A stretch of DNA of 41,632 bases from a virus (lineage: Duplodnaviria > Heunggongvirae > Uroviricota > Caudoviricetes): positions 1 to 41,632 of the IMG/VR virus record IMGVR_UViG_2547132279_000012, one strand, 5' to 3'. Below are positions 8,439-9,724 of this stretch, piece after piece. Within the stretch, counting starts at the first letter, position 1. Each line of letters opens with the position of its first letter. Below the pieces are notes generated by a model that was given only the letters and a program-made list of their open reading frames with translations, ran no database searches and was not told the origin of the DNA. Made by a program: the position numbers and the translations under genes.

Positions 8439-8773
8439 ATAGTTTAACAACACACTACCGTCGCTCGCAACTGATTGCGCTTCCTGTACCGGGTGGAAAA
8501 GCGAAGGTGGAGTATTGCTATGCAGTAAATGTACCAGGTGGCAGGGTAATTGTAACCCACAGCTTTGCAGAGTGGGCTGTGGGTGATTTTAACCGGCAAA
8601 AGGAGACAGTCCTTTGCGACAAGTTAACCGCTGGTTCAAAGATCACTACGGAGTACCCGTCAGAGTCATTCGTTGGGAGCCGGAAACACAACGGGTTATC
8701 TACCTCCGCGAAGGCTATGAGCATGAATGCTTCAGTCCGCTCGAACAGTTTCGTCGTAAATTCAGGGAAATAG
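8435..8773 (+). CDS. Hypothetical protein; C-terminal half looks non-protein-like (possible frameshift, see findings)
   Basis: N-terminal roughly 57 aa protein-like; downstream S/T/N-rich translation while the -1 frame reads as a plausible protein to 8793. Confidence 0.3.
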
Positions 8774-8782
8774 AGGTCGGTC

Positions 8783-9724
8783 ATGAGCACTAAATTAACC
8801 GGCTATGTATGGGATGGTTGCGCAGCGTCAGGCATGAAATTATCCAGCGTGGCAATTATGGCACGCCTGGCTGATTTCAGTAATGACGAAGGTGTGTGCT
8901 GGCCATCAATTGAAACCATTGCCCGCCAGATTGGCGCGGGGATGAGTACCGTCAGAACGGCTATCGCACGGCTGGAAGCAGAAGGCTGGTTAACGCGTAA
9001 GGCGCGTCGCCAGGGTAACCGCAATGCGTCGAATGTTTATCAGCTTAACGTTGCGAAGCTTCAGGCTGCGGCTTTTTCTCAACTGTCAGATTCTGACCCG
9101 TCAAAATCTGACGCATCAAAATCTGACCCGTCAAAATTTGATGCGTCGAAATCTGGCAAAAAAGCGGGTTTTCACCCGTCAGAATCTGGCGGGGATCCGT
9201 CAGTAAAATCAAAACATGATCCGTCAGATAAAAAAACTTCTCGTCCGGACGCTTCGCAACCGGACACGCAGAAGGCTGAACAGGATTTTTTAACTCGCCA
9301 TCCTGATGCGGTTGTATTCAGCCCTAAAAAGCGCCAGTGGGGGACGCAGGATGATTTGACCTGCGCACAGTGGCTCTGGAAAAAAATCATCGCCCTGTAC
9401 GAGCAAGCCGCCGAATGTGACGGCGAGGTGGTTCGTCCCAAAGAACCGAACTGGACAGCCTGGGCAAACGAAATTCGCCTGATGTGTGTGCAGGATGGTC
9501 GTACTCACAAACAAATCTGCGAGATGTACAGCCGCGTCAGCCGCGATCCGTTCTGGTGCCGTAACGTGCTCAGCCCGTCGAAGCTGCGGGAAAAATGGGA
9601 TGAGCTTTCCCTGCGCTTATCGCCGTCCGTCAGCACGTACACCGAAAAACGCGAAGACCCGTACTTCAAAGCCAGTTACGACAACGTGGACTACAGCCAG
9701 ATCCCGGCAGGATTCAGGGGGTGA
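8783..9724 (+). CDS. Replication initiation protein (lambda O-like, winged-helix N-terminus) containing origin iterons
   Basis: N-terminal wHTH region; 15 bp tandem repeats inside the gene encode the SDPSKSDASKSDPSKFDASKS repeat, as in lambdoid ori-in-O arrangements. Confidence 0.7.
   Translation: MSTKLTGYVWDGCAASGMKLSSVAIMARLADFSNDEGVCWPSIETIARQIGAGMSTVRTAIARLEAEGWLTRKARRQGNRNASNVYQLNVAKLQAAAFSQLSDSDPSKSDASKSDPSKFDASKSGKKAGFHPSESGGDPSVKSKHDPSDKKTSRPDASQPDTQKAEQDFLTRHPDAVVFSPKKRQWGTQDDLTCAQWLWKKIIALYEQAAECDGEVVRPKEPNWTAWANEIRLMCVQDGRTHKQICEMYSRVSRDPFWCRNVLSPSKLREKWDELSLRLSPSVSTYTEKREDPYFKASYDNVDYSQIPAGFRG
9086..9193. repeat. Replication-origin iterons (five tandem 15 bp TCAAAATCTGACCCG-like repeats plus degenerate copies, followed by an A-rich tract)
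   Basis: Direct tandem repeats at 9086-9160 with further copies at 9179-9193 and about 9199-9213; A-rich stretch at 9225-9240. Confidence 0.6.

Follow-up and report, generated by a model that had tools for sequence, protein, structure and literature searches.

Introduction

RgdR (ECs1581), encoded by prophage Sp7/CP-933C of enterohaemorrhagic Escherichia coli (EHEC) O157:H7, is the sole DUF4222 protein to have been studied (Flockhart et al. 2012, PMC3378721; reviewed in PMC10877973). It is a 99-amino acid (aa) regulator of motility and of the LEE (locus of enterocyte effacement) type III secretion system, activating LEE1, repressing motility and binding DNA weakly and non-specifically, and an RGD motif at residues 20–22 is important for activation of type III secretion (PMC3378721; PMC10877973). 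Here we analyse a gene of the same family in a 41,632-nucleotide (nt) stretch of viral DNA, IMG/VR record IMGVR_UViG_2547132279_000012 (positions 1–41,632, hereafter the window), in which it lies out of frame within ymfM, known from E. coli K-12 as the gene for a cell division inhibitor. The comparisons point to two genes sharing ~160 nt in different frames, with the DUF4222 frame conserved as protein and the ymfM frame over the same bases very probably kept open irrespective of the amino-acid sequence that it encodes.

YmfM has been identified as SfiC, an inhibitor of cell division that is induced in the SOS response and is encoded by the cryptic prophage e14 of E. coli K-12 (Ansari et al., bioRxiv 10.1101/2020.11.19.390815), an assignment made in 2020–21, after 35 years. 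Expression of the ymfM 'open reading frame' from pBAD24 resulted in filamentation and loss of the Z-ring, ymfM was also deleted, and ymfM was treated as one 112-aa protein, a nested open reading frame (ORF) being unmentioned in the text (bioRxiv 10.1101/2020.11.19.390815). ymfM is now both cited and used as a tool, as the prophage cell division inhibitor SfiC.

Phage genes nested out of frame, with both products functional, include lambda Rz/Rz1 and the lysis gene of MS2. The locus described here is like these in that a longer ORF contains all or most of a short gene with an initiation codon of its own, and both frames are open in relatives. It is unlike them in that the overlapped part of ymfM shows no constraint at the protein level, only its continuity and its end point being conserved. 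Translational coupling and control by Rho-dependent polarity are found in early and immunity operons of phages, for example in the c4-icd-ant genes of P1 immI. As in P1 immI, the ORFs considered here are chained by their stop and start codons, with ATGA at ymfL/ymfM, a stop, 9 nt and an ATG at ymfM/O, and an ATG 8 nt before the DUF4222 stop. We know of no description of coupling across ~160 nt by reading through a gene in a second frame.

Results

The initial annotation of the window, made from the sequence without database searches, cited the ORF at 8435–8773, here identified as ymfM, and drew attention to a second, −1 frame within it. That frame is present as described, being open from 8593, immediately after a TAA at 8590–8592, to a TAA at 8791–8793, with a TTG at 8614–8616 preceded by AGGAG at 8601–8605 and a spacer of 8 nt. 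The resulting gene (8614–8793, plus strand, TTG start) encodes 59 aa and did fall under the 60-aa cutoff of the ORF list. Translation of 8593–8793 matched PF13973 (DUF4222) over model positions 1–52 of 53 (69.1 bits, the gathering cutoff being 27; E 2.4e-19), a match which places the frame far beyond chance, and the product also matched PHROG phrog_1343 (E 2.1e-34). RefSeq/PGAP annotates WP_001250269.1, 'DUF4222 domain-containing protein', at exactly 8614–8793 in H10407 and SEC470, which are 100% identical to the window over 8300–8900. On the Pfam and PHROG matches and the RefSeq annotation, the hidden frame is a small gene that was already known and belongs to a catalogued family. Neither the DUF4222 product nor the ymfM product was matched by any NCBIfam model.

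RefSeq records are inconsistent at this locus, each carrying only one of the two genes. The K-12 record has ymfM annotated and DUF4222 not, whereas in H10407, SEC470 and most other strains DUF4222 is annotated and the conserved ORF of the ymfM N-terminal domain is not (window 8435–8613; 2636–2814 in locus L001; 3502–3681 in locus L002).

Relatives of the locus were drawn from a comparison set of 35 loci from species-representative genomes of ~10 enterobacterial genera, together with phage records; 43 distinct relatives form the base of the counts of start codons, stops and codons given below. A further 80 IMG/VR relatives, obtained by scanning viral contigs for the N-terminal domain and comprising close relatives only, were used for polymorphism. 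The DUF4222 gene has its own start codon in 43/43 distinct relatives (ATG in 33, GTG in 5 and TTG in 5), and a purine-rich element resembling a Shine-Dalgarno (SD) sequence (GGAG, GAGG or GGGG) is positioned 6–12 nt before the start in most of them. At six loci a stop in the −1 frame occurs 0–3 nt upstream of the DUF4222 start. AlphaFold predicts the product to be a small beta-barrel, SH3/Tudor/KOW-like, with confidence (predicted local distance difference test, pLDDT, 83.5). Combined with membership of a Pfam family and the strong purifying selection reported below, the start codon and the SD-like element bear out the suggestion of an unannotated small gene, with the qualification that it is unannotated only in some records, K-12 among them. 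The DUF4222 frame is almost certainly a real, independently translated gene, with AGGAG at 8601–8605 (plus strand) as its SD sequence.

In the window, the DUF4222 SD sequence and the first bases of the TTG are predicted to pair in a local AAAGGA/UCCUUU hairpin (8599–8615, plus strand). The fold computed for the 91 nt at 8570–8660 has a free energy of −29.2 kcal/mol (z −2.17). Such a hairpin could tie initiation at DUF4222 to ribosomes passing in the ymfM frame. The hairpin sequence is missing from type B and C loci and is not conserved in other N-domain subtypes, and for this reason it is kept out of the explanatory model.

RgdR and the window protein belong to the same family, RgdR itself matching PF13973 with E 2.1e-23 and 82 bits. 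BLASTP aligns the window protein with the RgdR core at 41% identity over 49 aa (E 3e-11), the alignment beginning at residue 24 of RgdR and residue 8 of the window protein. Both genes are prophage-borne and lie directly 5' of a replication gene with overlapping stop and start codons; in Sakai Sp7 (locus L134) rgdR occupies 4305–4604 and a P4-like primase gene begins at 4601. The two also differ. RgdR, at 99 aa, carries N- and C-terminal extensions relative to the 59-aa window protein, and its gene resides within a P4-like satellite upstream of the primase, whereas the window gene precedes an O-like gene. The RGD motif was found nowhere in the sequence of the window protein, which is therefore, by the RGD criterion, a member of the DUF4222 family and not a functional RgdR orthologue as far as sequence comparison can tell. 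DUF4222 genes of Serratia, Yersinia and Elizabethkingia phages likewise lie directly before a replication gene and overlap its start, and in every context examined the DUF4222 gene stands immediately before a replication-initiation gene. This position hints at a role tied to expression of the replication gene. By homology with RgdR and from the predicted fold, the protein is probably a regulator acting through contacts with protein or nucleic acid.

The surrounding ymfM ORF (8435–8773, plus strand, 112 aa) corresponds to K-12 b1148, 'cell division inhibitor YmfM', matches PHROG phrog_1170 and is 112 aa in length in 78/80 of the IMG/VR relatives. Compared with K-12 e14, the ymfM region of the window gives a DNA alignment of 433 columns with a mean column identity of 97%, five residues differ, and the ymfL-ymfM-O neighbours are the same. 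The ORF consists of a conserved N-terminal domain of ~57 aa (8435–8605, plus strand; hereafter N-domain) and an out-of-frame reading of the DUF4222 gene. Three related subtypes were distinguished among the N-domains found upstream of DUF4222, and the ATG of the ORF overlaps the ymfL stop in most loci. The N-domain matches PHROG phrog_20047 (63 aa) and was without a match in a Pfam search, and AlphaFold gives only a weak model of it (pLDDT 52–68). The remainder, the tail (8606–8770, plus strand), is stop-free and, as the initial annotation had noted of the frame past about 8600, of low complexity, being rich in serine, threonine, asparagine and alanine after about residue 60. It is predicted to be disordered, with pLDDT below 50 for YmfM residues 60–112.

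The two parts of this arrangement also occur separately. Phages of Providencia, Hafnia and Citrobacter carry the N-domain as a stand-alone ORF of 59–65 aa. Its stop overlaps the start of the gene that follows in PSTRCR_117lys, a Providencia phage, and in Hafnia phage yong2, and Citrobacter phage phiNP has the N-domain followed by rha and then by DUF4222, each as a separate gene. Conversely, DUF4222 but no N-domain is found in phages of Serratia, Yersinia and Elizabethkingia and in the element of EHEC prophage Sp7 that bears rgdR.

Substitutions indicate which frame is selected in each part. Between the window and K-12, 3/3 substitutions within 8614–8793 are synonymous for DUF4222 and nonsynonymous for ymfM, while 5/7 within 8435–8613 are synonymous for ymfM. 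Over ~65 pairs analysed by the pairwise Nei-Gojobori method, the ratio of nonsynonymous to synonymous substitution rates (dN/dS) was 0.03–0.3 for the DUF4222 frame, with dS from 0.5 to >2 and often >1, and 0.07–0.5 for the N-domain across its three subtypes. The bases shared by both genes gave a dN/dS of 1–7 when read in the ymfM frame, and dS of DUF4222 was not depressed relative to that of the N-domain. Similarly, the DUF4222 protein is identical in 62/80 IMG/VR relatives while the ymfM tail occurs in dozens of variants. These ratios show purifying selection on DUF4222 and on the N-domain and none on the sequence of the tail; judged in this way, the real protein-coding content of ymfM is its first ~57 codons. 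The purifying selection in both frames that would indicate dual coding is absent, and both frames are uninterrupted in relatives. The initial annotation had asked that homologues be compared for the frame that they conserve, with synonymous bias in the annotated frame and interruption of the −1 frame as grounds for refutation. The outcome was mixed: it is the hidden frame that shows synonymous bias and the annotated frame does not, yet the latter is uninterrupted in relatives.

Openness of the ymfM frame, which is frame +1 relative to DUF4222, was examined over DUF4222 codons 1–52. It contains zero stops in 43/43 relatives, while the other frame contains 2–11. Stops can arise in the ymfM frame only at what we term risk dicodons, where the last two bases of a DUF4222 codon are TA or TG and the next base is A or G. 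For a given protein, with codons used as in E. coli, a sequence would be stop-free with a chance of 0.02–0.16. At risk dicodons the synonymous codons that would produce a stop are all avoided: valine is encoded by GTT or GTC in 117/117 cases and leucine by CTT or CTC in 63/63. Outside the risk dicodons, A or G is the third base of 33% of valine and 69% of leucine codons in these genes, and isoleucine is commonly encoded by ATA. A neighbour-joining tree places 16 changes at risk sites, each of them between T and C, while at free fourfold sites, with 139 changes, A or G accounts for 43% of states. DUF4222 genes in which the upstream neighbour stops at their start carry 2–7 stops in the frame equivalent to ymfM, including a TGA at the same valine-isoleucine dicodon. 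A similar layout, with overlapping ymfM-type ORFs of 114–117 aa, extends over a DUF4222 subfamily which looks much more divergent. From these codon patterns, the ymfM frame is very probably held open by selection. Proteins of the SfV orf38 type were considered as DUF4222 paralogues and controls and were given no weight, as Pfam does not confirm the relationship.

The position at which the ymfM frame ends is equally regular. In the window, the TAG at 8771–8773 (plus strand) is formed by ATA, encoding Ile53 of DUF4222, and the G of the next codon. In 38/43 relatives the same column holds ATA, TTA or CTA with A or G as the next base, isoleucine being encoded by the rare ATA in 29/29 and leucine by TTA or CTA in 9/9. 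The ATG of the O-like replication initiator gene (8783–9724, plus strand; Pfam HTH_36, E 4.3e-11) is in frame with ymfM and lies 8 nt before the DUF4222 stop. A ymfM stop followed by 9 nt and an in-frame O-like ATG was found at 38/40 loci, the spacing at the other two being 3 and 6 nt; loci that are more divergent have −11, +16 and +9 between ymfM stop and O start. A GAGG at 8773–8776 (plus strand), abutting the TAG and 6 nt before the ATG, is likely to be the SD sequence of the O-like gene. The O proteins downstream vary in type and length (ORFs of 281–455 aa). These codon comparisons show selection to have fixed the place at which the ymfM frame stops.

Downstream of DUF4222, SfV-type relatives carry IsrK (RF01394), a C4 antisense RNA (RF01695) and then rha/ant, a c4/IsrK module that resembles P1 immI. 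The two RNA genes are located at 1712–1788 and 1813–1900 in the stretches from SfV, ST64B and the Stx1a phage (L012, L013 and L014), and are also present in L074. In these relatives the ymfM-frame ORF is open across both RNA genes and continues in frame into rha/ant, giving ORFs of 278–402 aa, and of >457 codons in L074. Translation of the IsrK/C4 RNA region is matched by Pfam 'Phage_ASH', a family which may in part model RNA genes.

A 90-aa antisense ORF (8518–8790, minus strand) is also open across DUF4222 in the window and several relatives. By reasoning, it is probably an artefact of the register of DUF4222, which uses no TTA, CTA or TCA codons.

The genes considered here belong to the immunity and replication region (6844–9724) of an e14/SfIV-like lambdoid prophage, with an early-right operon of the order cI, cro, ymfL, ymfM, O. 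The region comprises a LexA-like cI repressor gene (6844–7536, minus strand), a cro-like gene (7634–7894) and ymfL (7887–8438, plus strand), which encodes a CII-like Phage_CP76 regulator (PF06892, E 2.4e-13), is so named in identical genomes and has a TGA stop overlapping the ymfM ATG (ATGA). The ymfL/ymfM joint, GGAGAAACTAACGCATGA, is near-invariant and is kept in most relatives even where another N-domain subtype follows (L016–L049, ~1319–1334); GGAGAAACTAACGCATGA looks like a conserved joint for recombination or coupling. When the 601 bases at 8300–8900 were used as query, 100% identity to E. coli ETEC (enterotoxigenic E. coli) H10407, SEC470 and other strains was obtained. The query matched 2,708 E. 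coli records, 1,935 of them over at least 80% of its length, and phages SfIV and SfII are ~98% identical to it.

Discussion

The arrangement described here is best accounted for, in our view and with rather better than even confidence, by two genes plus a read-through of unconstrained sequence which delivers ribosomes to the replication gene. DUF4222 would use TTG 8614 as an independent start, served by an AGGAG of its own, its stop overlapping the start of the replication gene. As the N-domain ends without a stop, a ribosome translating it would have to cross the DUF4222 gene in the +1 frame, which would yield a tail of 54 unconstrained and probably disordered residues and the 112-aa product. 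It would then terminate at TAG 8771–8773, with the in-frame ATG of the replication gene 9 nt further on. Such a read-through would keep the coupled chain of ymfL, ymfM and O unbroken across the inserted DUF4222 gene, and the outcome would be termination-reinitiation at O, shielding from Rho-dependent polarity, or both, independent of the strength of initiation at DUF4222. The ymfM/O junction, with its upstream stop a few nt from the downstream start, has the form of a coupled junction. A ribosome relay of this kind is favoured because N-domain ORFs that stand alone likewise stop where the next gene begins, because the tail is dispensable in phages in which the N-domain stands alone, and because the ymfM stop occupies the last possible position before O. 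As the specific reason for the openness of the frame, relay or anti-polarity is suggested by this geometry, and we hold it tentatively, at slightly less than an even chance.

Several observations weigh against this explanation. A search for RNA structure that hides the ribosome-binding site of O found none (z +1.76), and O has a plausible SD sequence of its own. In Serratia and Yersinia phages the upstream gene ends at the DUF4222 start and DUF4222 ends at the O start, so that a relay is not the sole way in which these genes can be kept coupled. The relatives share ancestry, so that counts at the tips of the tree overstate independence and the tree-based count of 16 changes is modest. A literature search returned no report of expression for either frame. 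Finally, as judged from sequence, a tail selected for its length or composition would leave the same signature.

A tail of this last kind is the main rival to the relay. Under it, YmfM would need its C-terminal extension of ~54 residues, with length, disorder or a serine-, threonine- and alanine-rich composition mattering and the sequence itself not. The extension is predicted to be disordered, the ORF is 111–117 aa in nearly all relatives, with the single length of 112 aa prevailing among the close ones, and over-expression of the cloned ymfM ORF filaments cells (bioRxiv 10.1101/2020.11.19.390815). However, homologues of the N-domain stand alone at 59–65 aa and variants of 76–78 aa also exist, and the dN/dS of 1–7 is accompanied by radical replacements at one position, for example H/P/L/R or S/L. 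A requirement for the tail also leaves unexplained why the stop falls 9 nt before the O ATG. We consider a functional tail improbable without its being remote. Openness by chance or through general codon bias, with nothing significant beyond the first 57 codons, has in its favour a chance of ~2–16% that a single off-frame stretch of 52 codons is stop-free and the shared ancestry of the relatives. It is nevertheless highly unlikely, because synonymous sites of DUF4222 are saturated in many pairs (dS >1) and still 43/43 relatives are stop-free, risk sites toggle between T and C and never to A or G while control DUF4222 genes do carry such stops, and rare ATA, TTA or CTA codons are fixed exactly where a stop is needed.

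The other two alternatives deny that two genes are present. The initial annotation had raised −1 frameshifting near 8599–8602, which if programmed would fuse the N-domain to DUF4222 as a product of ~117 aa. An AAAG is indeed present at 8599–8602, with AAG as a zero-frame codon; the window reads CAA AAG there, the −1 frame is open from 8593 and a stable local structure overlaps the site. Relative to A_AAA_AAG frameshifting of the dnaX and insertion sequence (IS) type, the window is similar in having an A_AAG in the right register and a folded domain encoded in its −1 frame, but it lacks a conserved heptamer and its downstream frame has its own start. The A_AAG is confined to the window, K-12 and most e14 relatives having CAG AAG, and an X_XXY_YYZ heptamer is conserved in none of the relatives compared. 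In the six loci with a −1-frame stop 0–3 nt before the DUF4222 start there is no room for a slip, while a start codon at every locus and an SD-like element at nearly all are provided for initiation, and frameshifting offers no cause for an open zero frame downstream. Rare database proteins do hold both parts in one frame; five examples of such in-frame fusions were found, all with different junctions and most from single Logan/ENA contigs, and were set aside as sporadic indels. Frameshifting thus finds no support in the comparison, and its probability is in our estimate very slight. The remaining alternative, an ancestral gene split by a frameshift mutation or a sequencing error into a pseudogene or artefact, would explain two protein-like halves in different frames. 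The probability of a split is close to nil, as the two-frame layout is present in every relative examined, including Klebsiella and Pantoea phages and ~10 enterobacterial genera, and the halves are found elsewhere as separate genes.

The presence of two genes bears on the identity of SfiC. A clone ending at the ymfM stop would include the DUF4222 SD sequence, the TTG and codons 1–53, the whole Pfam domain, and deletion of the annotated ymfM ORF would take out most of both genes. If constructs follow the annotated ORF, pBAD-ymfM and the ymfM deletion would each affect two conserved polypeptides, one of which belongs to the family of RgdR, a pleiotropic regulator. Because such a clone carries all three, the ymfM phenotype could stem from the N-domain, the 112-aa protein or DUF4222, and the SfiC/YmfM attribution needs re-testing. 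Since the two frames differ, clean separation-of-function mutants are easy to design. That SfiC filamentation derives wholly or partly from DUF4222 or from the 57-aa N-domain, and, linked with this, that the tail is a 'ribosome conveyor' to the replication gene, we regard jointly as possible but on the unlikely side. In the literature searched, neither the selected out-of-frame nesting of a gene within ymfM nor its bearing on SfiC was found described.

A conveyor of this kind, if true, would be a distinct way in which overlapping frames are maintained. The locus is a well-sampled case in which selection appears to act on the continuity and end point of an ORF and not on its sequence, a case which would escape the usual searches for overlapping genes by dN/dS or conservation.

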